A stretch of DNA of 64,000 bases from Pristiophorus japonicus. Taxonomy: Eukaryota. Under the pieces are notes generated by a model. That model did no database searches, was not told where the DNA came from, and saw only the letters and a program-made list of their open reading frames with translations. The stretch covers positions 23,374,001 through 23,438,000 of the forward strand of contig NC_091999.1 of NCBI RefSeq assembly GCF_044704955.1. Reading direction: 5' to 3'. Each line of letters begins with the position of its first letter. Position 1 is the stretch's first letter. Positions 1-64,000 of this stretch are shown piece by piece. Made by a program: the position numbers and the translations under genes.

Positions 1-179
1 CAGCAAGTGACCAGAAACATAACTTTGTTTCCTGCTGTCCCATAAATCCTGAAATTAATTTGACACTTGTTTTGAACCAGAGTAATGCTGGTGTAGACCT
101 CTAGACCTTCGGGCTATTTGGGTTACACTATTATAACCAGCGGAGATGCGTTTGGATGCAAGGATCTACAGATGGGTGT

Positions 180-2941
180 AAACATAGAAACATAGAAACA
201 TAGAAAATAGGTGCAGGAGTAGGCCATTCGGCCCTTCTAGCCTGCACCGCCATTCAATGAGTTCATGGCTGAACATTCAACCTCAGTACCCCATTTCTGC
301 TTTCTCGCCATACCCCTTGATCCCCCTAGTAGTAAGGACCTCATCTAACTCCTTTTTGAATATATTTAGTGAATTGGCCTCAACAACTTTCTGTGGGTAG
401 AGAATTCCACAGGTTCACCACTCTCTGGGTGAAGAGGTTCCTCCGCATCTCGGTCCTAAATGGCTTACCCCTTATCCTTAGACTGTGACCTCTGGTTCTG
501 GACTTCCCCAACATTGGGAACATTCTTCCTGCATCTAAACTGTCTAACCCCGTCAGAATTTTAAATGTTTCTATGAGGTCCCCTCTCATTCTTCTGAACT
601 CCAGTGAATACAAGCCCAGTTGATCCAATCTTTCTTGATAGGTCAGTCCCGACATCCCGGTAATCAGTCTGGTGACCCTTCGCTGCACTCCCTCAATAGC
701 AAGAATGTCCTTCCTCAGGTTAGGAGACCAAAACTGTACACAATACTCCAGGTGTGGCCTCAACAATGCCCTGTACAACTGTAGCAACACCTCCCTGCCC
801 CTGTACTCAAATCCCCTTGCTATGAAGGCCAACATTCCATTTGCTTTCTTAACCGCCTGCTGAACCTGCATGCCAACCTTCAATGACTGATGTATCATGA
901 CACCCAGGTCTCTTTGCACCTCCCCTTTTCCTAATCTGTCACCATTCAGATAATAGTCTGTCTCTCTGTTTTTACCACCAAAGTGGATAACCTCACATTT
1001 ATCCACATTATACTTCATCTGCCATGCATTTGCCCACTCACCTAACCTATCCAAGTCGCTCTGCAGCCTCACAGCATCCTCCTCGCAGCTCACACTGGCA
1101 CCCAACTGAGTGTCATCCGCAAATTTGGAGATACTACATTTAATCCCCTCATCTAAATCATTAATGTACAGTGTAAACAGCTGGGGCCCCAGCACAGAAC
1201 CTTGAGGTACCCCACTAGTCACTGCCTGCCATTCTGAAAAGTACCCATTTACTCCTACACTTTGCTTCCTGTTTGACAACCAGTTCTCAATCCATGTCAG
1301 TACACTACCCCCAATCCCATGTGCTCTAACTTTGCACATCAATCTCTTGTGTGGGACCTTGTCGAACGCCTTCTGAAAGTCCAAATATACGACATCAACT
1401 GGTTCTCCCTTATCCACTCTACTGGAAACATCCTCAAAAAATTCCAAAAGATTTGTCAAGCATGATTTCCCTTTCACAAATCCATGCTGACTTGGACCTA
1501 TCATGTCACCTCTTTCCAAATGCACTGCTATGACATCCTTAATAATTGATTCCATCATTTTACCCACTACCGATGTCAGGCTGACCGCTCTATAATTCCA
1601 TGTTTTCTCTCTCCCTCCTTTTTTAAAAAGTGGGGTTACATTGGCTACCCTCCACTCCATCGGAACTGATCCAGAGTCAATGGAATGTTGGAAAATGACT
1701 GTCAACGCATCCACTATTTCCAAGGCCACCTCCTTAAGTACTCTGGATGCTGTCCATCAGGTCCTGGGGATTTATCGGCCTTCAATCCCATCAATTTCCC
1801 CAACACAATTTCGCGGCTAATAAGGATTTCCCTCAGTTCCTCCTCCTTAATAGACGCCCCGACCCCTTTTATAACCGGAAGATTGTTCGTGTCCTCCTTC
1901 GTGAATACCGAACCAAAGTACTTGTTCAATTGGTCCGCCATTTCTTTGTTCCCCGTTATGACTTCCCCTGATTCTGACTGCAGGGGACCTACGTTTGTCT
2001 TTACTAACCTTTTTCGCTTTACATATCTATAGAAACTTTTGCAATCCGTCTTAATGTTCCCTGCAAGCTTCTTCTCATATTCCATTTTAACTGCCCCAAT
2101 CAAACCCTTTGTCCTCCTCTGCTGAGTTCTAAATTTCTCCCAGTCCCCAGGTTCGCTGCTATTTCTGGCCAATTTGTATGCCACATCCTTGGCTTTAATA
2201 CTATCCCTGATTTCCCTTGATAGCCACGGTTGAGCCACCTTCCCTTTTTTACTTTTATGCCAGACAGGAATGTACAATTGTTGTAGTTCATCCATGCGAT
2301 CTCTAAATGTCTGCCATTGCCCATCCACAGTCAACCCCTTAAGTATCATTCGCCAATCCATCCCAGCCAATTCACGCCTCATACCTTCAAAGTTAGCCTT
2401 CTTTAACTTCTGGACCATGGTCTCTGAATTATCTGTTTCATTCTCCATCCCAATGCAGAATTCCACCATATTATGGTCACTCTTCCCCAAGGGGCCTCGC
2501 ACAACGAGATTGCTAATTAATCCTCTCTCATTACATAACACCCAGTCGAAGATGGCCTCCCCGCTAGTTGGTTCCTCGACTTATTGGTCTAAAAAACCAT
2601 CTCTTATGCACTCCAGAAAATCCTCCTCCACCGTATTGCTTCCAGTTTGGTTAGCCCAATCTATGTGCATATTAAAGTCACCCATTATAACTGCTGCACC
2701 TTTATTGCACGCACCCCTAATTTCCTGTTTGATGCCCTCCCCAACATCACTACTACTGTTTGGAGGTCTGTACACAACTCCCACTAACGTTTTTTGCCCT
2801 TTGGTGTTCTGCAGCTCTACCCATATAGATTCCACATCATCCAAGCTAATGTCCTTCCTAACTATTGCCTTAATCTCCTCCTTAACCAGCAATGCTACCC
2901 CACCTCCTTTTCCTTTTATTCTATCCTTCCTGAATGTTGAA
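180..2941 (-). mobile_element. Young CR1-clade LINE, 5'-truncated (partial APE endonuclease + RT), in the intron upstream of IgM CH3
   Basis: ORFs 380-1729, 1714-2541 and 2581-2892 give CR1 ORF2 (VYRPP, GDFN, GVPQGSVLGP, FADDT) broken by a few frameshifts/stops; 3' end is (TTTCTATG)n, read as catagaaa repeats on +. Confidence 0.95.
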
Positions 2942-3252
2942 GCAGCAAGGAATTTCAGGATGAGCGCTCTTCAGTGCCTAACACAATAGCACCACAATGT
3001 ATTCCCGTTTTACGCCGGTTATTTGCTTCACAGCCCATTACAGGTGGCTCTGGCTTCAAATACACAGGAAATGTTACAGATCTCCCGGAATCGTTGCCAA
3101 TACATTGTCCTTCCAATAACGCCGGTGTTAAAGCAGCAGCGTGAGGTTGATATCTCAAAAGTGATTTATCCCCCTTGAACGAGTTAAGGCTAAAAATTGG
3201 TGTCCGGATTCTGAAGATGCAGCTTTTCCTGACTTTCATTCCTGTTTTGCAG

Positions 3253-3560
3253 TGGATGTCCCATGCAGCGATTCAAAAATCACTCTTCGCCCACAGTCAC
3301 TGGCACAGGACTTACTGGAGCGACGGTGACCTTAAACTGCGTCGTGTCTGATGCTCCTTATGGGCTCACCGTGTCCTGGACCTGAGAAAAGGAGGCTTTG
3401 AAATCAGAGATTGCCGTCTAACACGGAGAGGATCCCAGCAGCGTAATCAGCAACTTAAACATCTCGACACAAGACTGGCTGAGTGGGGATAAGTTCTACT
3501 GGATGGTGAGCCATTAGGATATACCGACTCCTATCAGAGATTCCATCCACAAGGAAAAGG
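3253..3560 (+). pseudogene. IGHM: Shark IgM heavy-chain CH3 exon, pseudogenised
   Basis: Acceptor ttttgcag at 3245-3252. Translation VDVPCSDSKITLRPQSLAQDLLE[fs][76 protein letters not shown] matches shark Cmu3. One frameshift, three stops, second Cys>Trp, donor GT>GA. Confidence 0.93.
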
Positions 3561-4464
3561 GATAGCGCGGAGATTGTTGCAATAAGTCAGATACTGTGAC
3601 TATTTGTGCTGCATGTGCAAGGGCCAATTCATTATTTAAAGTGTTTAATGGGCTACTCTGATCATTCAGTTTGGTAATTCCACGAACTCAGCACTCTGGG
3701 ACCTGATGTTATGTATTTTAGGGGAAACTGGATAAGTCCATGAGCGAGAAAGGAATAGAAGGGTATGTTATTAGGATGAGATTAAGTGAGCTAGGAAGAG
3801 GCATGTGTGGAACATACACACCAGCATAGACCAGTTGGCCAAATCTCCTTGATCTGTGCAGTAAATTCAACTCCAACCCTTCAAGATTTCAGAGAGAAAG
3901 ATTATGTTCACTCTGCTGCGGGATGGTAAACCAGAGAGGCCCCAGAGGGGAAATAATAAAGCGTTAAATGTCAACGAAGAGCATATTTCTCTGACGTACA
4001 ACCACGGGACATTGGCGAATGTAAACAGAGAAAGCGAGTTGGTGGTGGTCTCAAAGGCCACCCGGGAGCAGAGGAGGATTGGAATCCGAGTGAGGAGCTC
4101 TCGGATCGCGGGGGGTGGGTTAGGCAGGGAACCTGGATCCAGGAGGGAGGTGTAAGGGCAATAACCACCTGGGTGCAGCCGTCCCCGCATCGCTGTAACT
4201 GCTGCGATTTACACAGTGTGTCAAGCCGGACCAGCTACAGTTAAAAACCGAATGGAGGTTAAAATAGAGGATTCCAGCCTCCTATAAATATATTATTCAA
4301 ATACAATATTACAACCAGGAGTGGTCGGGTTGATGTCGGGATGCCGATTTTTACCAATTTAATCACCCCCACACCCTCAATACGCCTGCTTTATTAGATT
4401 AAAACTCCCACCATTGTATCTGGAACTGTCCAGTTCATTTGCCTTTATTGTAACTGTTGTACAG

Positions 4465-4855
4465 CGAAAGATCCACGGGAACCAGCCGTGTCTGTCCTGC
4501 TGCCCTCGGCAGAAGAAGTCTCTACTCAGAGGTTGGTCAGCCTCACCTGCTTAGTGAGAGGATTCTCCACCCGAGAGATCTTCGTCAAATGGACCGTCAA
4601 GGACAAGCCGGTGGTTCCGACAACTACCAGAACACCGAGGTGATGGCGGAGAATGGCAGCAGCTCCTTCTTCATGTACAGCCTGCTATCCATTGCAGCCG
4701 AGGAGTGGGCCCGCGGCGCCTCTTACTCCTGTGTGGTGGGACATGAAGCGATTTCCTTGAAAATCACCAACAGAACCATCAATAAATTCAGAGGTAAACC
4801 CTGTTTTGTGAACATTTCCCTTGCTCTGATGGACAACATCAATTCTTATCAATGA
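4465..4855 (+). pseudogene. IGHM: Shark IgM CH4 exon plus secretory tailpiece, frameshifted
   Basis: Acceptor ag at 4463-4464. [49 protein letters not shown][1-bp loss ~4613][79 protein letters not shown]. Internal donor gag|gtaaac at 4794 serves the membrane form. Confidence 0.95.
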
Positions 4856-5289: not shown

Positions 5290-6250
5290 TGAATCTCCCA
5301 TCGCCCCACCAGAGAGAGGTGAAATGGAAATTGTTATCCCCCTGTACCTTCCACTACACCACCAGAGAGAGATGAAAGGGCAATTATTCATCCACTGTAA
5401 GACCATTGCCATACAAAAGAGTGGTGAAATGGCAATTCTGAACCCACTGTGCTTCCCACTGCCCCACCAGAGTGAGGGGAAACGGCAATTGTTAATGCAC
5501 TGTAACTTCACTCCGTCTCTGCAAGATTCTACAAGTTCCCTGGCAGGACAGACGCGCCAAAATTAGCGTCCTCGTGCAGGCCAACATCCCAGCATCGAAG
5601 CACTGACCACACTTGATCAGCTGCTCTGGGCAGGCCACATTGTCTGCATGCCAGACACGAGACTCCCAAAGCAAGCGCTCGACTCGGAACTCGCCCATGG
5701 CAAATGAGCCAAAGGTGGGCAGGGGAAACGTTATAAGGGACCACAAAGCCTCCCTGATAAAGTGCGACATCCCCACTGACACTTGAGAGTCCCTGGTCAA
5801 AGACCGTCCTAAATGGAGGAAGGGAGGAAGTAGATCCGGGAGGGCGCTGAGCCCCTCGTGTCTCGTCGCCGAGAGCATTCAGACATCAAGCGCAGGCAGT
5901 GGAAGGAACGTGCGGCAAACGTGTAAAATCTTCCCCTTCCCGCAACCACGGTCTTTCCCACCTGTGACAGAGACTGTGGTTCCCTATTGGACTGTACAGC
6001 CACGTAAGAAATCAGGCTAAGAGTGGAAGCAATTCTTCCTTGATTGCGAGGGACTGCCTTTGATGATGTAAACCCTCTCCCCCACCAGAGAGAGGGGAAA
6101 GGGCAATTGTTAACTAACTGTCCCGCCCACTACCCCAGCATAGTGAGGGGAATCTGCAATTGTTAACCCAATGTATCCGACTTCCGCACAAGCGAGAGGG
6201 CAAAGGGCAATTGTTAAATCATTGTACCCCTCAATGTCACCAGAGAGAGA
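5290..6250. repeat. ~53-bp degenerate minisatellite, split by an RTE fragment
   Basis: Units like ccccaccagagagaggggaaagggcaattgttaa at ~5305, 5358, 5410, 5463, and again at 6080-6250. Confidence 0.75.
5515..6068 (+). mobile_element. RTE-clade LINE 3' fragment
   Basis: Degenerate RT C-terminal motifs (LRWAGHIV-like, CPTC-like zinc knuckle) and tail gagggactgcctttgatgatg; homologous to 36100-36645. Confidence 0.85.
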
Positions 6251-6369: not shown

Positions 6370-7000
6370 AAGTTCACACTTACACATAAACACAACACGG
6401 ATTTACACATAAACGCACAGCGACTTACACATAAACACACACATTGACACACTGACACAAGATATTACGCATACCCAGAATATAATACACACCGTCATTT
6501 TCAGAACCACAGCACCATTAATATGACAGCAAAAATAAACACACCGTTAAATAAAACAGAAGCACTAACACACACACACACACACACAAACACACACACT
6601 TTCACTTGCATAAACACATATTCAACACAAATTAACTAACGCATAACACACACACATTTACATGCGAACACACACAGTTACACATAAATGCACACATTGT
6701 TACCCATAAACATACACAACACGTACACATAACCATACACAAACACATTAAAACACGCACATGAACGTACTTACAAAGAATAGACATATTTAAACATAAC
6801 CACAAACAATTGCATATATACACGTAAAGGCTTACATGTAAACATACACAATCTTACAAAAATACACAAACACTTACACATAAATATAAATATATGGAAT
6901 GACACATTAAAAAAATTCAAACTTACATATCAACATACATCAACACACAAACACAGACAACATCAAAAGAAGAGATCGTCATACACACAAACACAAACAC
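6370..7000. repeat. CA/ACA-rich low-complexity tract
   Basis: Degenerate (CA)n and acacataaac runs. Confidence 0.85.
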
Positions 7001-7641
7001 TAAAGTGCAAAAAATACGTCAGGTAACAGACGAATATAGAATTAAAATAAATTCTTTGAACAGACAGTCTGCAACGATTGTATTAAATAAATCATTTCTG
7101 ATACCATAATATCTAACATTCCTATATTCTGGTCCTGAACGCAAACTGAATCAAAGTTCTTAGTTGGAAACTCATGCAAATTAATTATGTTCAGAACCTT
7201 GACTACCACAAATTAATCCAGATTATAACTCACATCTGATGTCTTACCCTGTCCCTTTGACAGTCTCCGAATAATTAGCTATCTGAAGCTATTGTTAAAT
7301 TAATCGATATCATTCAGTATAGTTCCCCCGATATTACATCATACTATTCCCGAATGGTAAATCCTATGAAATTGATGCAAAATCAATTAGCCTGTGACAT
7401 TGAAGGAAAACTGTCATATTTTCCAAAACCGACTATAGAAGAATCATAAAGAAAGAACGACTGTGGAATTAGAAACACAGATAGATTACTGAGCGTGATT
7501 AACTTAACACAGGACATACATTGAACATTAAAATAGAGAATAATCTAACACCTTAAAAAAAGAAAATAGAATACGTAATAATAAGATGAGATCTTGGGTT
7601 AACAAACGATCTGAATATATTTCCTCCCCTACATCCCGTAG

Positions 7642-7769
7642 ATTCCTCAGACCACATCTGGAGTGAAGAGTATGAGGACGAGAGCAGCAACTTCTGGTCA
7701 ACCGCTTCCACATTCATCGTCTTGATCTTCCTGAACATTTCCTACAACGCTGCCATCACTCCGGTGAAG
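7642..7769 (+). pseudogene. IGHM: IgM transmembrane exon TM1
   Basis: Acceptor cccgtag and donor gtgaga intact. DSSDHIWSEEYEDESSNFWSTASTFIVLIFLNISYNAAITPVK matches shark mu TM (acidic spacer, TASTF CART-type segment). Confidence 0.92.
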
Positions 7770-7907
7770 GTGAGAAGATTCAATGCACTCAGTTCGAGTT
7801 GATTGAAGAGGTTTGACAAATCTCTAAATGTTTCATTGATAACAACCCTGAAATTAATGCCCCAAACCACTAAAACGCTGCTTCAAACTTTTATCCCTCT
7901 TTTACAG

Positions 7908-7916
7908 GTCAAGTGA
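7908..7916 (+). pseudogene. IGHM: IgM TM2 exon (VK-stop)
   Basis: ttttacag|GTC AAG TGA completes the KVK cytoplasmic tail; AATAAA at 7975-7980 and 8329-8334. Confidence 0.88.
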
Positions 7917-8501
7917 TTGACTGAATTTCGGCCGCCGGGGATTTTTCTCCTCTGGTTGTTAACTGTGTCTTGAAAATAAATTATGTCCTCTTGGTGATTC
8001 CCGGAGTAAATTGCCTTCAATTTTTTCATTTCTCTGTTTGAAATGTGTGAGATAACCGTGGCTATAATGTAAATGTATCTCGGAGTCAAACAATTGTTTG
8101 AATATCTCATGTGTACATAAGTCACTTTTATCATTCATGATTCACAATTATTCACTTCCCTTGGTGTTGAACATCTGTTTCTCTCTCCCTGATGTCTGTT
8201 AGAGTTGTACAAATAGCTGGCAGCTCAGACCGACTGTGTTCTGGTATTAATGTGACGCTCATTTGTTATATTCAATTTGTGTGAACATTTGAAAACCTTC
8301 TCTGTAAATTGTTCTCTGTGAAATTGTTAATAAAACTGCAATGGCAAATGGAATAATTTGGACTTTGCTGAACTCTTTACTCCAAGGCTCCTTCACACTG
8401 TTCTATTTCCCTATCACACGTTGTTTTATTTCCATGAAATTTATTCTTCCCGCGTCCTATCCTGATGTTTTTGAATCCAAGTCCCTTCGGTTAAGGAGCC
8501 A

Positions 8502-8519
8502 CTGCGCCACCTAGTGTCC
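8502..8519 (-). promoter_or_regulatory. CTCF-binding-site-like motif 3' of the IgM cluster
   Basis: Minus strand GGACACTAGGTGGCGCAG, close to the CTCF core CCAC/GYAGR(G/T)GGCGC. Confidence 0.45.
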
Positions 8520-8679: not shown

Positions 8680-9005
8680 AGTATGTGTCAGAGCAAATCT
8701 CCCTCTACACTGTCCTAACAAACACTCTCAGGGCAGGTACAACACAGGTTAGATAAAGAGTAAGGCTCCCTCTGCACTGTCCCATCAAAAACTCCCAGGG
8801 CAGGTGCAGAACGGGTTAGATACAGAGAACAGCTCCATCTACACTTGCACACCACACCCTCCCAGGGCAGGTACAGCACGGGTTAAATATAGAATAAATC
8901 TCCCTCTACACCGTCCCATCAAACACACCCAGGTCAGGAGCAGCACTGGTTAAATACAGATTAAAGCTCACTCTATACTGTCCCATCAAACACTTCCAGA
9001 CACAC
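8680..9005. repeat. 67-bp satellite, ~5 copies
   Basis: Unit acagagtaaagctccctctacactgtcccatcaaacactcccagggcaggtacagcacgggttagat. Confidence 0.9.
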
Positions 9006-9429
9006 TAGAGAGCACAAACTCTTGGAATGATTCCCAAAAACTGGGGCCGAACTGACACACAGACACGCGCTCCAATGTTTCTGTTATACACATATAGAAA
9101 GCCAAGAAAGAGACGACAGGTGGAGAGATTTTCTTTGACAGAGAGGAGATGAGAGTTCACGCGGCATCTGCAGGTACATTTGGAGCTTTGTGCCCGTTGG
9201 GCACCTACATACAAAATGTGTGATGCACGGGCAATATCAATTTCTGATGTAAAATCATTGTCGTTTTGTTCTACCCAAATATATGATTGACATCCTCCTC
9301 TCTGGGAGGGCATTCGTAGAATGTAAGTTTCGTTTACGATTCAACTCTTTAAAGGTCACCTGAATGCATATGGTCCATACGGACAGAAATGCGTAGGGTT
9401 ATCACTGCCAACCGTTCTCCATTATGAGG

Positions 9430-10240
9430 AACATACATAAAAACATAAGAATATAAGAAATTGGAACAGGAGTAGGCCATACTGCACCTCGAGCCTGCTC
9501 TGCCATTCATGGCGGTTATGATAATGGACTGAGCTCCACTTTCCTGCCTGCTCCCCATAGCCCCTTATCGTTTAAAACACTGTCTATTTCTATCTTAAGG
9601 TTATTCAATGTCCCAGCTTCCACGGCTCTCTGAGGCAGCGAAGTCCAGACATTTACAACGTTCTTAGAGAGGAAATTTCTCCTCATCTCTGTTTTAATTG
9701 GGCGGCCCCATATTTTAAGATCATGCCCTCCAGTTCTAATCTCCCCCATCAGTGCAAACATCCTCTCTGGATCCACCTTGTCAAGCCCCCTCATAATCTG
9801 ATACATTTCGATAAGATCACTTCTCATTCTTCTGAATTCCAATGAGTCGAGGCCCAAACTACTCAACCTTTCCTCATAAGTCAACCCCCTCATCTCCGGA
9901 ATCATCCGAGTGAACCTTCTCTGAACTGCCTCCAAAGCAAGTATATCCTTTCATAAATATGTAAACCAAAACCGCACACAGTTCCAGGTGTGGCCTCCCC
10001 AATATCCTTTATAACTGTAGCAAGACTTCCCTGCTTTTATACTCCATTCTCTTCACAATAATGGCCAAGATGCCAATGGCCTTCCTGATCATTCGCTGTA
10101 CCTGCATATCATCCTTTTCTGCTTCATGCACAAGTACCCTCAGGTGCCGCTGAACTGCGGCACTTTGCAATCTTTTTCCATTTAAATAATAACTGTCTCT
10201 TTGATTTTTTTCTGCCAAAGTGCATGATCTCACGTTAAAC
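9430..10240 (-). mobile_element. CR1 LINE 3' fragment
   Basis: ORFs 9516-9935 and 10009-10242 are RT C-terminal; cataagaa-type tail. Confidence 0.9.
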
Positions 10241-10279: not shown

Positions 10280-10485
10280 CTGCTCTGCACTATTCCCTCT
10301 GATACCATCTCGCTTAACTCACTGAACATCACCCACAGATTTGTTCTCACTGCTCTGCTCCATTCCTTCTGATACCATCTCCCTGAACTCACTGAACATC
10401 ACCCTGAGGATTCTGTCTTCCTGCTCTGCGCCATTCCTTCTGATACTATCAACGTGAAATCAGTGAACAACTCCTACGGATACGG
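10280..10485. repeat. ~70-bp tandem repeat x3
   Basis: ctgctctgc(n)ccattccttctgataccatc...actgaacatcacc repeated three times. Confidence 0.8.
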
Positions 10486-11005
10486 CAGTCACCTTCGAAG
10501 AAACAGCCAATCACTGTGCTATGATGTATGCGAGGGATTATGGCGTCATCCACGGAATCCAGGTACGCAACTCAGTTGAAGTTAGTACCAGGGACAAACA
10601 TATTTCCTGATGTTTGATTTCTGATTTAAGCAAATTGGAAAAGGAGCCTGAGGTGAAAAGGGCCGAATTTATTGATGCAGGTTTGATCAGGAATATACTA
10701 CGTGAAAGAGTGGGGAAAAGAATTAATATTAACTTTAAGAAGGGAATTAGTTAAATATCTAAAAGGAGAAAATTGCAGGGCTTTAGGAAAAGAGTGGGAC
10801 TAATACGATAGCTCTTTCAAAGTGCCAGCACAGGCTTAATATTCTGATTCTAGATTCGAGGCGATGCCAGCGAATGTTGTCATTCTGTTCTCACAATTAA
10901 CTTTAGCTGCAACCAGTTGGCTTCTGCTTCGTGCATGTCGCTAAGATACTCAACCTGCCCAATTGATTGGCTCTGCAGGACATTGCCACGAGTATCAAGA
11001 AATCA

Positions 11006-11077
11006 GTTTATTGTGAGCCCTTCATACAGGATACTGTCCTTTGGGTCCATCTCAGTGTGTGTCGGCTCACAGGAACC
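11006..11077 (-). pseudogene. Degenerate D-segment-like cassette flanked by RSS remnants
   Basis: Minus strand: nonamer GGTTCCTGT, 11-bp spacer, heptamer CACTGAG, 7-12 nt core (ATGGACC...), poor heptamer, then nonamer ACAATAAAC at 22-23-bp-type distance. Confidence 0.5.
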
Positions 11078-11147
11078 AATGTGGCAGAATCTGCCCGCCG
11101 TTATATACGACTTCAGCAGTCGGAGCCAAGATCTACAAAGTGGCGGG

Positions 11148-11186
11148 AGGTTCTGTATGAGGGTTGAACTGAGTTCCATCACTGTG
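11148..11186 (-). other. 23-bp-spacer recombination signal sequence (RSS) of the V segment
   Basis: Minus strand CACAGTG (11186-11180) + exactly 23 nt + ACAGAACCT (11156-11148). Confidence 0.88.
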
Positions 11187-11353
11187 AGTGCCAGGGCACG
11201 TTAATAAACTGCAGGTCCAGTCATCTGCAGCCCAGAGATGGTTAAACCGGTAAACTTAGTCACAATTTAGAGATCTGCAGTGAAACGTCTCTGGCAAAAT
11301 ATATTACCTTCATAATAGCCGATGTATTTCACCAGAATAATCTCGATCGCAGG
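11187..11353 (-). pseudogene. T-cell receptor alpha/delta-type V segment, 5'-truncated pseudogene (end of FR2 to FR3)
   Basis: PAIEIILVKYIGYYEGN..FAR(D)RFTADL*IVTKFTGLTISGLQMTGPAVY*RALA resembles shark TCR Valpha/delta FR3 (RFSAELQ..KFTSLTISGL.LTDSAVYYCAL). YYC has become Y*R; the segment abuts a 23-RSS; leader, FR1 and CDR1 not found. Confidence 0.82.
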
Positions 11354-11410
11354 TAGGTTGTGGTAAGTGTTCCCTGTGCTGGTTTAAATTGTGCTAATTA
11401 AGAAGGACAT

Positions 11411-12886
11411 TAGAAACATAGAAACATAGAAAATAGGTGCAGGAGTAGGCCATTCGGCCCTTCTAGCCTGCACCGCCATTCAATGAGTTCATGGCTGAAC
11501 ATTCAACTTCAGTACCCCATTCCTGCTTTCTCGCCATACCCCTTGATCCCCCTAGCAGTAAGGACCTCATCTAACTCCTTTTTGAATATATTTAGTGAAT
11601 TGGCCTCAACAACTTTCTGTGGTAGAGAATTCCACAGGTTCACCACTCTCTGGGTGAAGAAGTTCCTCCGCATCTCGGTCCTAAATGGCTTACCCCTTAT
11701 CCTTAGACTGTGACCCCTGGTTCTGGACTTCCCCAACATTGGGAACATTCTTCCTGCATCTAACCTGTCTAACCCCGTCAGAATTTTATATGTTTCTATG
11801 AGGTCCCCTCTCATTCTTCTGAACTCCAGTGATTACAAGCCCAGTTGATCCAGTCTTTCTTGATAGGTCAGTCCCGCCATCCCGGGAATCAGTCTGGTGA
11901 ACCTTCGCTGCACTCCCCCAATAGCAAGAATGTCCTTCCTCAGGTTAGGAGACCAAAACTGTACACAATACTCCAGGTGTGGCCTCACCAATGCCCTGTA
12001 CAACTGTAGCAACACCTCCCTGCCCCTGTACTCAAATCCCCTTGCTATGAAGGCCAACATGCCATTTGCTTTCTTAACCGCCTGCTGCACCTGCATGCCA
12101 ACCTTCAATGACTGATGTACCATGACACCCAGGTCTCTTTGCACCTCCCCTTTTCCTAATCTGTCACCATTCAGATAATAGTCTGTCTCTCTGTTTTTAC
12201 CACCAAAGTGGATAACCTCACATTTATCCACAATATACTTCATCTGCCATGCATTTGCCCACTCACCTAACCTATCCAAGTCGCTCTGCAGCCTCACAGC
12301 ATCCTCCTCGCAGCTCACACTGGCACCCAACTGAGTGTCATCCGCAAATTTGGAGATACTACATTTAATCCCCTCATCTAAATCATTAATGTACAGTGTA
12401 AACAGCTGGGGCCCCAGCACAGAACCTTGCGGTACCCCACTAGTCACTGCCTGCCATTCTGAAAAGTACCCATTTACTCCTACTCTTTGCTTCCTGTCTG
12501 ACAACCAGTTCTCAATCCATGTCAGTACACTACCCCCAATCCCATGTGCTCTAACTTTGCACATCAATCTCTTGTGTGGGACCTTGTCGAACGCCTTCTG
12601 AAAGTCCAAATATACCACAGCAACTGGTTCTCCCTTATCCACTCTACTGGAAACATCCTCAAAAAATTCCAGAAGATTTGTCAAGCATGATTTCCCTTTC
12701 ACAAATCCATGCTGACTTGGACCTATCATGTCACCTCTTTCCAAATGCACTGCTATGACATCCTTAATAATTGATTCCATCATTTTACCCACTACCGATG
12801 TCAGGCTGACCGGTCTATAATTCCCTGTTTTCTCTCTCCCTCCTTTTTTAAAAAGTGGGGTTACATTGGCTACCCTCCACTCCATC
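11411..12886 (-). mobile_element. Young CR1 LINE, 5'-truncated, near-identical to the 180-1660 copy
   Basis: ORFs 11509-11814 and 11833-12888; catagaaa tail. Confidence 0.95.
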
Positions 12887-14920: not shown

Positions 14921-16319
14921 GGCCATGTTATTGGGGCTGATGGAGCTGGACAAAGCTGGTTCAGAACTGACAGGACAGGATGGCCCACTGGGTGTGATGT
15001 AATGCAGAATTAACACGAAAATACATTTTTATAATTTGATTAATTTTATAATGAGATTCATTGGATATTTCAGCGCATCCATTAACTCCTCTCTGAATTT
15101 ACTCTGGATCACTGAATAAATACACGTGTTTGTGCAGGAACTCAAAAGCTGAAGACTATTTCCGGTTTCTTGGAGAATACATTTTGGGTCTTTGAAATTG
15201 GAACCTGAGAAATAATTATTCTTTGTAATTCGGACATACAAGAAATTTACAACGTACACTGTCCATAATAGGATGAAACTGCCCGAGATGGTAAAGTGTA
15301 AAACGATTAATTTTCTCCGGCTCTCCAACTCTGGGTCGCTTTGATTCTCTCCATTGCTGTGGGCCCGGAGCCTTCTGCGGGCTCTGCTCGTCGCTAGAAT
15401 ATGTCTGACGGTCAGAGCATTGAGCAGCAATATCAGGAGAAAGTCATGGCGTTAAAATTCTGTCAAGCCATTCATATACTATCCATAGAGGAGAACGATA
15501 AAATATTACTTTGATGTTACATAACCATGGGACATTGTCAGTTATGAACATAGGTTCATAAGTGAGATAAGAAGTGATGTTTTTTTAAACAGCCAGGGCA
15601 CCGACCATGACTATAATCAGAGCTGCACTTTTCTCAGTGCAATATTTTGTTTTCAGTTTCTGGCATCATATCGCCACAAATCGATCGAAGGTGAAAGCGA
15701 CTGTTAACCAGATGGAACTATCCGTGGCTACATAAATTAGGATAGATGTTATAGTACAGCCTGGAGTAGTGGACAGCAGACTAAATTGAAAATAAATTCC
15801 AATGATCCGGTTTAATATCACAGCGGTGATAATGACCAGGAGATCTGCCACTGCCATGGACAGCAGGTACTAAGTGATACATCTGGCAAGACCGCACTTT
15901 CCTCGGGACAGGATCACAATTATCACCAAGTTAGCTGCAGGAAATAGACAGAAAAGAAAACAGTAACATTAAGTATCACTCCTCCTTGATGTTTATTTAT
16001 TTTGATCATATTTCAGCCTCGCGATGGGAATGATTCAGTGACCTGTCGGCAGAGATTGATCTGTTAAGATTTGAATAATGTTTGAGGAAGGGAAGCAGGA
16101 ACAGCGAAAGTGAAGGAGCGTGGGCGGACTAAAGCAATGAATGAGGAGCAGGACAGTGAGAACAGGCCAAGGAGTTTTAGGTGCAACTTCGTGACTACAA
16201 CCGTTTATCGTTCACTGATTGCCATCCATTTAATGACTCAGAATATCCCTTCAATAATTGCATGGCTAAAATCACACGTCAATCATGCAATCACTCAATC
16301 TGTTCAGAAATTCGATCAT

Positions 16320-25070: not shown

Positions 25071-28000
25071 ATGGTTAGTTTTGAGGGTTGGAACGCAAGT
25101 CAACAGATCAGGGTCGGAGATCAACTCATCCAATCAGACTGGGCCCTCGATGGACAACGCCTATGACGAAGTGGCACAGAACAAAACCATCGTCCTTCCC
25201 TGTTTCCTTGTATTAGTGCTTGTATCGGGCATTACCGGGACCTCAAGTGCACTGTGGCACATCGTACGAATGAAGAAGGTCTCACAAGCAAGTGATGTCC
25301 TCCTTCTGGATTTAATGATCACCGACTTCTTGATTATCCTGGTCTCTATACTTTCTCTTATGCAATTTATCCTTGGAAGCAGATTATGGAGTAATTCCGT
25401 GATGTCAGTGCCCTCTTGCGTCTAATCAATCTTTATGGCAACGCACTTTTCATGACCTGCATTGCTATTACATAGAAACATAGAAAATAGGTGCAAAGGT
25501 AGGTCATTCGGCCCTTCGAGCCTGCACCACCATTCAATATGATCATGGCTGATCATGCAACTTCATTACCCCATTCCTGCTTTCTCTCCATACCCCTTGA
25601 ACCCTTTAGCTGCAAGTGCCTCATCTAAGTCCCTTTTGAATATGTCTAACCAACTGGCCTCAACAACTTTCTGTGGTAGAGAATTCCACAGGTTCACATT
25701 TCTCTGAGTGAAGACGTTTCTCCTCATCTCGGTCCTAATTGGCTTACCCCTTATCCTTAGACTCATGGTGCTGGACTTCCACAAGATCGGGACCATACTT
25801 CTTGCATCTAACCTGTCCAATCGCATCAGAATTTAGCATGTTTCTATGAGATCCCCTCTCATTCTTCTAAATTCCAGTGAATATATGCTTAGTCGATCCA
25901 GTCTTTCTTCATATGTCAGTTCTGCCATCCCGCGAATCTGTCTTTTGAACCATCGCTGCACTCCCTCAATAGCAAGAATGTCCTTCCTCAGGTAAGGAGA
26001 TCAAAACTCTACATAAATATCAAGGTGTGGCCTCACCAAGGCCCTGTACAACTTCAGTAAGACCTCACTGCTCCTATATTCAATAACTTTCGCTATGAAG
26101 GCCAACATGCCATTCACCGCTTGCTGAACCTTCATGCCAACTTTCAATAACTGATGTACCATGACACCCAGGTGTCGTTGCACCTCCATTTTTCTTATTT
26201 GTCACCATTCAGATAATATTTTGCTTCCCTGTTTTTGTCACCAAAGTGGATAACCTCACATTTATCTATATTATACTGCATCTGCCATGCATTTGCCCAC
26301 TCACCTAACCTGTCCAAGTCACCCTGCAGCCTGTTACCATCCTCCTCACAGTTCACACTGCCATCCAACTTAGTGTCATCTGCAAACTTGGAAATATTAT
26401 TTTCAATTCCTTCGTCTAAATCATTAATGTATATCGTAACTAGCTGAGGTCCCAGCACTGAACCTTGAGGTACCCCACTCGTCACTGTCTGCAATTCTGA
26501 AAAGGAACCGTTTATTCCTACTCTTTGCTTCCTGTCTGCCAATCAATTCTCTATCTATGGCAATACATTACCTCCAATACCATGTGCTTTAATTTTTACA
26601 CACTAATCTCTGATGTGGGACCTGGCCAAAAACCGTTTGAAAGTCCAAATACACCACAACCACTGGTTCTCCCTTGTCCACGCTACTGGTTACATCCTAA
26701 AAAAAACTTCTAGACGATTTGGCAAACCTGATTTCCCTTTCATTAATCCATGCTGACTTGGACCGATCCTGTCACTGCTTTCCAAATGCGCTGCTATTAT
26801 ATCTTCAACGATGGATTTCAACATTTTTCCCACTACCGATGTCAGGCTAACCGGTCTATAATTCCCTGTATTCTCTCTCCCACCTTTTTTAAAACGTGGG
26901 GTTACATTAGCTATCCTCCAATCCATAGGAACTGATCTAGAATCTATAGAATGTTGGAAAATGAACACCAATTCATCCATTATTTCTAGGGCAACTTCCT
27001 TAAATACTCAGGGATGCAGAATATCAGTCCCTGGTGTTTTATCGGCCGTCAATCCCATCAATTTCCCTAACACCTGATTCTGACTGCAAGGGAACTATAT
27101 TTGTCCTAACTAATTTTTTTCTCTTTACATATCTATCGAAGCTTTGCAGTCAGTTTTCATGTTCTCGGCAAGCTTCCTCCCTATACTCTAGTTGCCCCCT
27201 CCTAATTAAATCCTTTGTCCTCCTCTGCTGAATTCTAAATTTCTCCCAGTGCTCAGGTTTGCTGCTTTTCTGGCTAGTTTATATGCCTCTTCCTTGGATT
27301 TAACGCAATCCCCAATTTCACTTGATAGCTACGGTTGAGCCAATTTCCCCGTTTTATTTTTATGCCAGACAGGGATGTGTAATTATTGAATTTCATCCAT
27401 GTGATCTTTAAAAGTCTGCAATTGCCTATCCACTGTCAACCCTTTAAATATCATTCGCCAGTCTATCCTAGCCAATCCACGTTTCATTCCATCGAAATTA
27501 ACATTCTTTAATTTCAGGACTTTATTCTCTGAATTAACTGTGTCACTCTCCATCTTAATGAAGAATTATATCACATTAAGGTCACTCTTCCCCAAGTGGC
27601 CTCGTAGAACAAGATTGCTAATTAATCCTCTCTCATTACACAATCTAGGATGGCCAGCTCTCTGGTTGGTTCCTCGACATATTGGTCTCGAAAACCATCC
27701 CTTATGCACTCCAGGAAATCCTCCTCCACCATATTGCTACCAGTTTGGTTAGCCCAATCTATATGTAAATTAAAGTCACCCATGCTAACTGCTGTACCTT
27801 TATTGCACGCATTCCTAATTTCCAGTTTGATGCCACCCCAACCTCACTATGACTGTTTGGTGGTCCGTACACAAATTCCACTAGCGTTTTCTGCCCTTTG
27901 GTGTTCCGCAGCTCTACCCATACAGATTCCGCTTCATCCAAGCTAATGTCCTTCTTTACTATTGCTTTAATCTCCTCTTTAACCAGCAACGCTACCCCAT

Positions 28001-59766: not shown

Positions 59767-62700
59767 TATTGTGTTCCTAACACAGATGAGACTTCAGAGG
59801 AAGGTTAAAGTAACAGTGACCTCAGTCTTTATTAAGACAATCCAGAGTGAGTAACAGACCTTCGGGGCCAGCTTATATACAGTGCTCTCAAGGGATGCTG
59901 GGATCCCTTGGGTCTTCTGGGGATGCGCTCCCTGGTGGCGGAACATGGGAGTGCATGCTTTACAGATGCACATCATCACTCCCCCTCAAAGTCAAAGTGA
60001 AAACTATTTACAAGGTGAGGCGGTCGGGAGCCTTTCTTTCCCTGGTGGACGGCCTTGATACAAATGTCGGTTCTGGTGTGTTGGCTGCACCCTCGCTGGG
60101 CTGGTGTGTTGTTGGCCCTGCAGAGCTGCTGGGTGAGCCTGGCCTTGCTGGGCTGTTGGGCGTGATGGGTTCGATTTCCTGGTCCGGCGTGGTGTTGTTG
60201 ATCCTTTTGGTGTGTGTTATGCGCTCGAAAAAGGTGGTGTCTGTTGTGGGTTGTTCAGGGCAGTCTATGAACCACAGCCTCGTGTGGTCCAAGTGCTTCT
60301 GCAAATTTGTCCATTGGCTAGTTTGAGTACAAACATCCTACTCCCTTCTTTAGCTATCACCCTGCCCGCGATCCACTTCGGACCATGTCCATAGTTTAGC
60401 ACATACACAGGGTCATTCAGATCAATTTCCCCTGACACAGTGGCGCGACCATCGTTTACATTTTGTTGCTGCCGCCTGCTCTCTACCTGGTCATGCAGGT
60501 TGTGGAGAACCAGTGAGAGTCTGGTTTTAAGTGTCCTTTTCATGAATAGCTCAGCCGGGGGAACCCTTGTGAGTGAGTGGGGTCACGTGCAGTAGCTGAG
60601 CAGCACTCGGGACAGGCGGGTTTCGAGTAAGCCTTCTGTGACTTGTTTGAGGCTCTGTTTGATTGTTTGTACTGCCCGCTCTGCCTGCTCATTGGAGGAT
60701 GGTTCAAACGGGGCGGAGGTGAAATGTTTGATCCCATTGCGGGTCATGAATTCTTTAAATTCGGCACTGGTGAAACATGGCCCGTTGTCACTGACCAGTA
60801 TGTAAGGCTGGCCGTGGGCGGCAAACATGGCCCTCAGGCTTTCAATGATGGCGGTGGCGGTGCTTCCCGACATTATTTCACATTCAATCCATTTTGAAAA
60901 ATCATCCACCACCACCAGGAACATTATACCGAGAAACGGGCCCGCATAGTCGACATGGATCCTCGATCATGGTCTGGAGGGCCAGGACTACAAATTTAGT
61001 GGTGCCTCTCTGGGCGTGTTGCTCAACTGAGCACGCATGCTGCATTGGCATACACAAGACTTCAAGTCAGAGTCGATACCGGGCCACCACACGTGGGATC
61101 TGGCTATCGCTTTCATCATTACTTTACCCGGTGGTGTGCTTTGGAGATCCGAGATGAACGTCTCCCTGCCCGTTTTGGGTAGCACTAGGTGGTTACTGCA
61201 CAACAGGCAGTCTGCCTGAATGGACAGCTTGTCCTTTCACCGCTGGAACGGCTTGATTAGCTTTTGCATTTCAACGGGTTTCCTGCCCAGCTCGCATGCA
61301 GTACACAGTTTTTTACTCGTGACAAAAGGGGTTCTTGGCTGATCCAAGTCCGAATCTGGTGGTCCGTGATCGGTGATTTATCATTTTCAAACGCTTCCAT
61401 GCCCATCAACAAGTCTGCGGGCTGCGCCACCGTCAATAAGTTTGCAGGCTGCGCCATTTACACCCCCATGGTGGGCAATGGTAGCCAACTGAGAACAACT
61501 GCACAGTTATCGGTGCCTGGCCTGTGGCGGATGGTATAGTTATACGCTGATAGTGCGAGTGCCCACCTTTGTATGCGGGATGAGACATTAGTATTTATCC
61601 CCTTGTTTTCAGTGAACAGGGATATGAGGGGCTTGTGATCGGTTTCTAGCTCAAATATGAGGCCAAACAGGTACTGACGCATTTTATATACCCCGAACAC
61701 ACACGTTAATGCGTTTTTATCAATCATTCTGTAGGCCCTCTCGGCCTTAGACAAGCTCCTGGAGGCATAGGCGAAATGTTGCAACTTCTCCACATTGTTA
61801 GCTTGTTGTAATACACACTCGACTCTGTACGACGACGCATCACATGCTAGCACAAGTCTTTTACATGGGTTATGCAATACAAGCAGCTTAATGGAGCATA
61901 AAATATTTCTGGCTTTCTCAAAAGCAATACTTGTTTTTTTCCCCATAACCAGTTCTCACCTTTAGTCAATAACACATGTAGGGGCTCTAAGAGGATGCTT
62001 AACCCCGGCAGGAAGTAATCAAAATAGTTAAGGAGTCCCAGGTACGACCGAAGCTGAAGGACCTCCTCCAAGTTTTGTAGGTGCTCGATGGTGTCCCGAC
62101 CTGTGACCAATATGTCGTCATGAAAAACCACCGTGCGTGGTACTGACTTGAGTAGGCTCTCCGTGTTTCTCTGGAAGATCGCTGCAGCCGACCGAGTTCC
62201 AAATGGGTATCTGTAGTAGATGAACAATCCTTTTGCGTGTTGATGCAGGTGAGGCCATTCGAAGACTCCTCCAGCTCTTGCGTCATGTAGGCCGAAGTCA
62301 GGTCGAGCTTGGCCAACATCTTGCCTCCTGCCAGCGTCACAAATACGTCATCTGCCTTAGGTAGTGGGTATTTGTCCTGTAGAGAGAAACGATTAATAGT
62401 TACTTTATAATCGCCACAAATCCAGACCGTGCCATCACTTTTGAGTACTGGAACAATCGGGCTGGCCCACTCGCTGAATTCTACTGGGGAGATGATGCCC
62501 TCGCGTTGCAGCCTGTCCAGCTCGATTTCCATTCTGTCCCTCATCATGTGCAGTACCGCTCGCGCCTTGTGGTGAAAGGGTCGTGCCTCTGGGACCAAGT
62601 GGCACCTTCGCCCGGAAATGTTTCCAATGCCTGGCTCAAAAAGGAAGGACATTTTTGAAGAACCTGTGATAGCGCTCGGAAGTCATCCCAGTTCCGACGG

Positions 62701-64000
62701 ATTTTGCCCAGTCAGCTCCTTCCAAGCAGTGTGGGGTCATCCCCCGGGACAACCAGAGTGGCAGTTCATGCACCGTGCCCTCGTAGGTGACGTTGACCAT
62801 GGCGCTGCCCATGACAGTGATAAGCTATTTGGTGCAAGTTATCTGTTTCGTGTGGATGGGGCTCAGGGATGGTCTGAGTGCCTTGTTGCACCACAGTCTC
62901 AGAAACATCTTTTTACTCATGGTAGATTGGCTAGCGCCAGTGTCCAGTTCAATGGCTACGGGTAAGCAATTCTATTTTATATTTAGCATCATAGGTGGAC
63001 ATTTCATCAAAAATGTGTGAACCCAGTGTATTTCAGCATCTGCCTCCTCTCTCTGTGGCTCGAAATAGCTTTGATCCATCATGGACCGATCTTCCTCTGC
63101 CACGAGGTGATTAGCACGTTTTGCCGAGCTTGCAGCTCATCTGCAAGCTCGTTGGAGGAGCTCCATTGTTCCACAGCTCTTGCAACCATACCCTTTGAAG
63201 CGGCATAAATAGGCTGAATGGAAGCCTCCACAAAGCCGTCAAGGTGGAATTGCCTTGCAGTCATCCTTTGTTGCGGGCTCTGAGTCATCTGGGTCACCTG
63301 AGGCCTTCTGGCAGTTGCAGACTCGTGCGTTCTGCCCTGTACATTTCTGCTCGAAAACACAGTTCCAGTTAATTTATGAACATTGCTAGCACTTGTGTAC
63401 TGAGAGATTTGTTTGCTGTTTTCACTGGTGGACATAAACGCCTGTGCTATCGCAGTGGCCTTAATGAGGGTAGGTGTCTCTACAGTCAAAATTTTCATAG
63501 GATGGTCTCGTGTCCAATACCCAGTGCAAAAAATCTGAGCATTTGCTCCAGGTAGCCATTAAACTTACATTGTCCTGCAAGTTACCTTAGCTCAGCCACG
63601 CAGCTCGCCAATTCCTGACCTTCAGATCGCTGGCACATGCAGAACCGATAGCTCGCCATCAACACGCTCTCCCTCAGGTTAAGATGCTCCCAAACCAGTG
63701 TACAGTGCTCCTCATATGACATATCTGTGGGTTTCACCAGAGCCAGAAGAAACTTCATGAGGCTGTAGGTCGGTGCCCCGCACACCATGAGGAGCACCGC
63801 TCTCCTTTTTCCAGTGCTTCCTTCTCCATCCAGCTCGTTGGCTACAAAGTACTGGTCTAGCCGTGCGACATCCACTTCCCAGTCCTCACCATCCGAGAAA
63901 TTCTCCAGGATGCCCACAGTTTGGTGCATCTTTGCGTTGGATTCGTATACTCGTCGCCAGTTATTGTGTTCCAAACACAGATGAGACTGCACACAGGGAG
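59767..64000 (-). mobile_element. Ty3/Gypsy LTR retrotransposon, degenerate; 3' LTR 59767-59978, 5' LTR from 63962 runs off the window
   Basis: Matching LTR ends tattgtgttcc(t/a)aacacagatgagact; PBS TGGCGACGAG at 63959-63950; PPT at ~59979-59986. gag, protease (LDTGAS), RT (WASPIVPV, KLDL, FHDDILV), RNase H (LACDAS, TDHKPL) and integrase (LVSDNG, AERAVQ) in Gypsy order. Confidence 0.93.

Follow-up and report, generated by a model that had tools for sequence, protein, structure and literature searches.

Two decayed antigen-receptor elements lie on opposite strands near the start of the window, the whole 64,000-nucleotide stretch of Pristiophorus japonicus DNA analyzed here. The exons of an Ig heavy-chain constant region run along the plus strand, and a fragment of a TCR alpha/delta-type V segment with its 23-RSS lies 3′ of them on the minus strand. 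The coding end of the V fragment is 3.27 kb from the end of the TM2 stop (7916, plus strand), in accordance with the initial annotation, which had placed an oppositely oriented V 3.3 kb 3′ of TM2. The features are collected in Table 1.

Table 1. Coordinates of the antigen-receptor elements and of the DNA around them (window positions; a dot marks features given without a strand).
Feature	Position	Strand	Basis or remark
Young LINE in the would-be CH2-CH3 intron	178..2970	-	Fills the window start
CH3-type exon, pseudogenized	3253..3560	+	C1-set
CH4 exon with secretory tailpiece	4465..4855	+	C1-set split over two frames
TM1 exon, open frame	7642..7769	+	Contig X6 record 27 covers 7641-7771
TM2 exon (VK, stop)	7908..7916	+	Sequence
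CTCF-like motif, putative	8504-8517	-	13/14 positions; 175 bp past the membrane poly(A) signal
67-bp tandem array	8689-8999	.	Between IgM and V
Old LINE remnant	9421-10236	.	Between IgM and V
70-bp tandem array	10280-10469	.	Between IgM and V
23-RSS	11148..11186	-	Heptamer CACAGTG 11186-11180, 23-nt spacer, nonamer ACAGAACCT 11156-11148; motif and read-through
TCR alpha/delta V pseudogene, 3′ half (FR2 end, CDR2, FR3)	11187..11344	-	Homology, HMM, tree
Gap from the end of V homology to the LINE tail, 66 bp	11345..11410	-	No confident FR1/CDR1 alignment
Young LINE, 5′-truncated	11411..12886	-	RVT_1 E 9e-34

Translation of the window confirmed the minus-strand peptide RFTADL-stop-IVTKFTGLTISGLQMTGPAVY-stop-RAL. 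Its in-frame stops occupy 11269-11267 and 11203-11201, the codon of the second Cys is CGT (Arg, 11200-11198), the DxAxY motif has Gly in place of Asp, and 8 of the 14 near-invariant residues of the family are kept. The relic therefore lacks both an open frame and the second Cys, which a functional TCR V requires. The homology to V domains ends at approximately 11344, so that the domain is present as its 3′ half only. What had initially been called a V segment is thus half of one: no leader, FR1, CDR1, first Cys, or conserved Trp belonging to it was found in the whole 64 kb window. An HMM of the 5′ half of the V had no match in the window (best E 0.22), whereas the same HMM detects distant V domains with E values of 1e-5 to 1e-11. 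A leader HMM gave no match in the window, and no J-like motif was found within it.

The LINE on the 5′ side of the relic (11411-12886) shares 98.2% identity with the copy at 185-1661, and we take it to be of the CR1 type from its 8-bp tail repeat. A target-site duplication was looked for at this LINE and none was found, and its excision in silico left the V homology no longer than before. The decay of the relic is far older than this LINE. A public contig over 10383-11412, from a run possibly connected with the source of the assembly, differs from the window at nine positions and has no gap; because it shows the truncated form, the truncation of the V is not an assembly slip of the window. Several young LINE copies in the window are 92-98% alike, approximately 42% of the window is self-matching through LINEs and tandem repeats, and seven N gaps occur from 21095 onward.

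Other remnants are also found in the window. A single-exon pseudogene of the rhodopsin GPCR family (15030-15940, minus strand) lies 3.7 kb beyond the relic; it carries stops and a frameshift, matches 7tm_1 in two frames (E 6e-11 and 0.003), and is GPCR-like in the Atlas. A possible second GPCR N-terminal piece (25150-25422, plus strand; 7tm_1 E 0.013, a weak match) is cut by a LINE at 25470. Decayed pol remnants of an LTR retrotransposon, with integrase and RNase H-like domains, are located at 60580-63560 on the minus strand.

Judged by its sequence, the relic is a TCR alpha/delta-type V and not an IgH V. This family call of the initial annotation was borne out by the protein search, the PDB search, the HMM, the profiles, and, with the reservation given below, the tree, and the best V match was a conventional TCR-family V of the horn shark rather than an IgSF or IgH/IgL V. 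The family HMM, searched against the window in six frames, matched the relic with an E value of about 1e-8, the next best value being 0.69. With the horn shark V as the query, tblastn against the window gave 7.6e-14, and the alignment continued through the RSS. A search of 1.84 billion representative proteins with the relic gave three matches; the best V match was horn shark XP_067869908.1 (P0005), a leader-bearing V-set protein with 54% identity over 52 aa. The two nominally better matches, P0003 and P0004 (a repetitive ORF and a beta-propeller protein), were set aside as non-Ig chance matches. In the PDB at E≤10, eight of the nine matches were TCR Vdelta1 or Valpha and none was an antibody, at weak E values of 1-1.8. 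The relic alone found no family in Pfam, a word-index search with it gave no match, and Rfam gave none.

The relatives of P0005 include complete chains, one of which, whale shark XP_048475117.1 (P0009), is a TCR delta chain according to its PDB matches. The C of P0017 and P0022 differs from that of P0009, which suggests the label alpha for these two. Because its best similarity is to V domains joined to TCR delta/alpha C, the relic is a conventional Valpha/delta by descent. It has the FR3 signature KFT.LTISGLQ.T in common with the conventional shark Valpha/delta family. According to PMC5931798, alpha also uses five of seven delta V families. Automatic annotation names delta chains 'alpha chain-like'.

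For the comparison of V groups, 63 V domains were extracted from the searches, and 56 were used in the tree and the profiles; the group labels are our own, and the VH rows of the reference set are from teleosts (n = 4), with no shark IgM VH among them. The profile of conventional Valpha/delta (20 V) scored the relic at 45.2 bits. The corresponding scores were 15.6 bits for NAR-TCR supporting V (9 V), our label for the V in second position in V-V-C chains, 13.2 bits for other Valpha (6 V), 7.8 bits for VL (4 V), 1.8 bits for Ig-like V (3 V), and 4.2 bits for Ig-like V plus VH. The identity of the relic was 35-53% to conventional V, 27-33% to the nine supporting V, and 22-24% to Ig-like V (20-24% once teleost VH are included), where one of the three shark Ig-like V (P0028) may correspond to the IgW-V/TCR delta entry in table S1 of PMC12227049. 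In a decay control, the conventional profile won 0 of 270 supporting V, 0 of 90 Ig-like V, and 270 of 270 conventional V, a result that is optimistic because near-copies stayed in the profiles.

A phylogeny had been suggested as a check on the family, and its outcome was mixed. The trees placed the relic within the conventional clade (support 100/98 and 99/98), on an end branch of 1.06 compared with a median of 0.18. However, the fragment is short (about 50 residues) and its branch long, and the AU tests rejected none of the forced placements, with p values of 0.20 for Ig-like V, 0.11 for NAR-TCR supporting V, and 0.32 for Ig-like V plus VH. No match to NAR V or supporting V was found in the window at E<0.01, and tblastn with five NAR V-bearing chains found none in the window outside the C exons; upstream DNA may be deleted. 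A non-rearranging IgSF V (UrIg and the like, with V and J in one exon and no RSS) was also considered and rejected, since the relic has an RSS and the window is without a J-like motif.

The heptamer of the 23-RSS is exact, and its nonamer has three differences from the consensus. Heptamer, spacer, and nonamer are as initially described, except that the heptamer does not follow RAL directly: five nucleotides (11191-11187) lie between them. Scoring of the RSS, likewise suggested as a check, put the motif alone at chance level (one match compared with 0.69 expected, reached in 46 of 100 shuffles); the family read-through, in contrast, supports a true RSS. Read in frame, the RSS agrees with the horn shark V at 9 of 14 residues, as it does with one bamboo shark V, and in a bamboo shark V the nonamer likewise reads QNL; five other germline read-throughs have 4-7 of the 14 residues in common with it. 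Because the spacer read-through matches the family, the RSS can be assigned to the V family rather than to chance. It is well preserved for such a decayed V, its read-through identity being about equal to that of the coding part, and this counts against the reading of the whole as a relic.

By sequence, the RSS looks compatible with RAG, and the initial proposal to this effect stands. Besides its exact heptamer, it has GAA at nonamer positions 4-6, in agreement with the purine-A/T-purine motif of PMC12711392. Position 7 deviates from the A-tract, and changes in the A-tract lowered RAG binding in vitro in the same study. Two further RSS-like motifs, at 4212 (plus strand, 22-nt spacer) and 7967 (minus strand, 12-nt spacer), were rejected; they are at chance level and adjoin no V, D, or J homology. 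Several shark and ray V gene models (P0005, P0007, P0011, P0013, P0030, P0031, and P0032) are read in frame through the RSS. This read-through makes the RSS spacer a family marker for protein searches.

The Ig constant exons of the window are CH3, CH4, TM1, and TM2 only. The CH3 contains three stops, a one-base frameshift near 3319, and GA in place of GT at the exon end; all contigs counted at the frameshift site have one extra base there, and the exon end at 3560 is also where a probable RNA contig stops. The CH4 has a one-base frameshift near 4613, where other copies in public contigs have one base more. None of the stop and frameshift alleles of the window's CH3 and CH4 was seen among the contig matches listed, and contigs drop minority variants; the IgM lesions therefore rest on the present assembly. 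The frames of both TM1 and TM2 are open, and the membrane poly(A) signal (AATAAA) is located at 8329. Since the young LINE fills the window start, CH1, CH2, and the VDJ of the cluster lie outside the view. The full IgM constant region of the initial annotation is consequently reduced to a few exons, of which CH3 and CH4 are broken.

The last domain and the tailpiece match mu and alpha chains in the PDB. The neighbor is likely IgM and presumably not IgW. An Atlas search with CH4 gave no isotype information, and a metagenome scan for relatives of the IgM found none. IgM pseudogenes are described for the nurse shark (PMC2435157). A 53-bp tandem unit occurs in the intron between the tailpiece and TM1 (patches 5303-5505 and 6074-6249, plus strand) and, by contig depth, is shared with other copies.

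Positions 1-21094 of the assembly are free of N gaps. No contig among the matches listed spans TM2 to the V, and the linkage between them therefore rests on the assembly. Near-identical contigs cover 6826-7524, 7736-8007, 9040-9474, and 10383-11412 at similar single-locus depth. In the bin of the V, the summed depth equals that of its single contig (61.8 vs 61.3 and 31 vs 30.6), and the bins of the IgM exons have 4-16 times the depth of the V bin, in a measure that is no copy number and is blind below 85% identity. These depths hint that other IgM clusters are without the V at an identity of at least 85% and that a cluster does not normally include it. In runs X5 and X6, which look like RNA because their contigs end at exon borders, the depth over the V bin is about 1; it was not counted as evidence of expression. 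Among the sequencing runs listed as containing the sequence, none was labeled RNA, which says nothing about expression.

The membrane poly(A) signal is followed, before the V is reached, by a putative CTCF-like motif that matches 13 of 14 consensus positions. The window has three such motifs compared with 0.63 expected, a number reached in 4 of 100 shuffles. The bin of this motif has about three times the single-locus depth, and the region may be common to several IgM clusters as a 3′ boundary, although the boundary role is a guess. No report of such a CTCF-like boundary of IgM clusters was found by title in the literature search.

TCR alpha/delta V exons, pseudogenes included, have been described between elasmobranch IgM clusters, in either orientation and as one antigen-receptor complex, in a study from 2025 (PMC12227049). 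TCR V, V pseudogenes, and 'IgM pseudo?' entries are intermixed in the tables of that study. The linkage of an Ig constant region with a TCR V, inferred in the initial annotation, is present in the assembly, but TCR V exons between IgH clusters had already been published. In the white shark sheet, the 28 TCR-type V entries taken comprise 16 on the plus and 12 on the minus strand. Across 17 IgM entries of table S1 from three species (16 with C exons and one V-only), the smallest distance to a TCR-type V is 7.1 kb for the V-only entry and 28 kb for a C-bearing IgM, or 70 kb on the 3′ side. The present 3.3 kb is shorter than any of these tabulated distances; being unusual among gene models, it counts against an ordinary relic, but tables of gene models would miss such relics. 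Relative to the published linkage, this short distance between V and IgM is the only new detail. The initial family call was right, and its significance was overstated.

The same study notes that at the beta and delta loci a V lies inverted behind C (section 15), and it lists NAR-TCR units near IgM in the white shark (table S1). Ig-TCR linkage in the elephant shark and a summary of NAR-TCR and VH trans-rearrangement are found in PMC3964593 and PMC6795676, respectively. Searches of the literature, mainly its openly accessible part, yielded neither a TCR V described only a few kb from the TM exons of an IgM nor a TCR-V/C-mu transcript; closer cases may have been published.

On this evidence, the relic is very probably functionless, the 3′ half of a conventional shark TCR alpha/delta V that has been truncated and interrupted by stops but retains its 23-RSS, located behind the broken constant region of a likely IgM. 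A V of a scattered array and an IgM cluster may each have decayed. The 5′ half of the V would have been removed by a deletion, which would be older than the young LINE or simultaneous with its arrival, and loss of spacer DNA or local duplication in this repeat-rich antigen-receptor region could have led to the separation of 3.3 kb. Since its promoter, leader, and frame are missing, the V cannot yield a receptor chain even if RAG cuts the RSS.

Occasional cutting of this kind, with non-productive inversions between the 23-RSS of the dead V and a 12-RSS of an IgM D or of a TCR delta D/J alpha, is possible but doubtful. The exact heptamer, the 23-nt spacer, and nonamer positions 4-6, which fit the motif of PMC12711392, are consistent with it, as are the QNL read-through of the bamboo shark V and the partly rearranged IgH loci of shark thymocytes (PMC2435157). 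However, nonamer position 7 is off the A-tract, where changes reduce RAG binding in vitro (PMC12711392); a promoter or leader to open the site was not found; D or J of the cluster is absent from the window; and Southern blots of the nurse shark did not show its IgM pseudogenes to be rearranged (PMC2435157). Such cutting would be compatible with a functionless relic and would add no function, the products being non-coding. The missing spanning contig among those listed, the tandem arrays and the LINE remnant in between, and the seven N gaps further along the scaffold would suit an assembly join across repeats, with the V located elsewhere; this is very unlikely, because positions 1-21094 have no gap and the near-identical contigs at four places between 6826 and 11412 have similar single-locus depth.

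It is highly improbable that the relic is the fossil of a dedicated inverted 3′ V of some IgM clusters, which would have joined the IgM D-J by inversion to give TCR-V/C-mu antibodies. Its geometry would fit, with the opposite strand, a position 3′ of C, and a 23-RSS pointing at C; an inverted V after C exists at the beta and delta loci (PMC12227049, section 15), the family is used with a delta C (P0009), and the V is closer to the C exons than is any TCR V to a C-bearing IgM in table S1. Nevertheless, both orientations of V are about equally common in the complex (16 vs 12, in the sheet taken from PMC12227049), the V is at single-locus depth and the IgM exons are multi-copy, and nurse shark IgM rearranges inside its minilocus according to PMC2435157. 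The putative CTCF-like motif lies between C and V, no TCR-V/C-mu transcript was found in the mainly openly accessible literature, and V and IgM are both dead here, with no support from conservation or expression. The identification of the fragment as a NAR-TCR supporting V or an Ig-like (TAILV/IgW-type) V is largely refuted and is the least probable of the alternatives. The AU tests reject neither placement, and white shark NAR-TCR units near IgM are tabulated in PMC12227049; against this stand a profile deficit of 30-43 bits, the decay control (0/270 and 0/90 won by the conventional profile, which is optimistic), the lack of any NAR V or supporting-V match in the window at E<0.01, and an RSS read-through that is nearest to conventional V.

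The functionless relic can be compared with several known systems. Like V exons of the published complex, it is a TCR alpha/delta-type V outside the main translocon and beside IgM, where either strand is used; unlike the tabulated entries, it is a half-domain 3.3 kb from C exons. It has the FR3 signature, the 23-RSS, and the spacer read-through of conventional shark Valpha/delta (XP_067869908.1 and XP_048475117.1), but it lacks the leader, FR1, CDR1, Trp, and second Cys and contains two stops. The inverted V at the TCR delta and beta loci, which we take to be TRDV3 and TRBV30, similarly lie on the opposite strand, 3′ of C, with the RSS toward C. However, these V are intact and stand behind a TCR C, whereas the relic is dead, stands behind an Ig C, and does not appear to be conserved from cluster to cluster. 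VH-to-C-delta trans-rearrangement, NAR-TCR, and TAILV are likewise cases of Ig/TCR mixing favored by close linkage. These place an Ig-type V on a TCR C, whereas here a TCR-type V is near an Ig C; the relic gives no evidence of a joint product with the Ig C, and it groups with no V of the VH, NAR-TCR, or TAILV type.

The relic thus represents one more close-range case of the mixture of Ig heavy and TCR alpha/delta genes already published for sharks, and it suggests that tables of gene models undercount V relics in the complex. If an inverted TCR V turned out to be conserved as a part of IgM clusters, or to yield V-TCR/C-mu products, it would be the reciprocal of the VH/C-delta chains. Such products or a conserved 3′ V, if true, would bear on the separation of the Ig and TCR loci.
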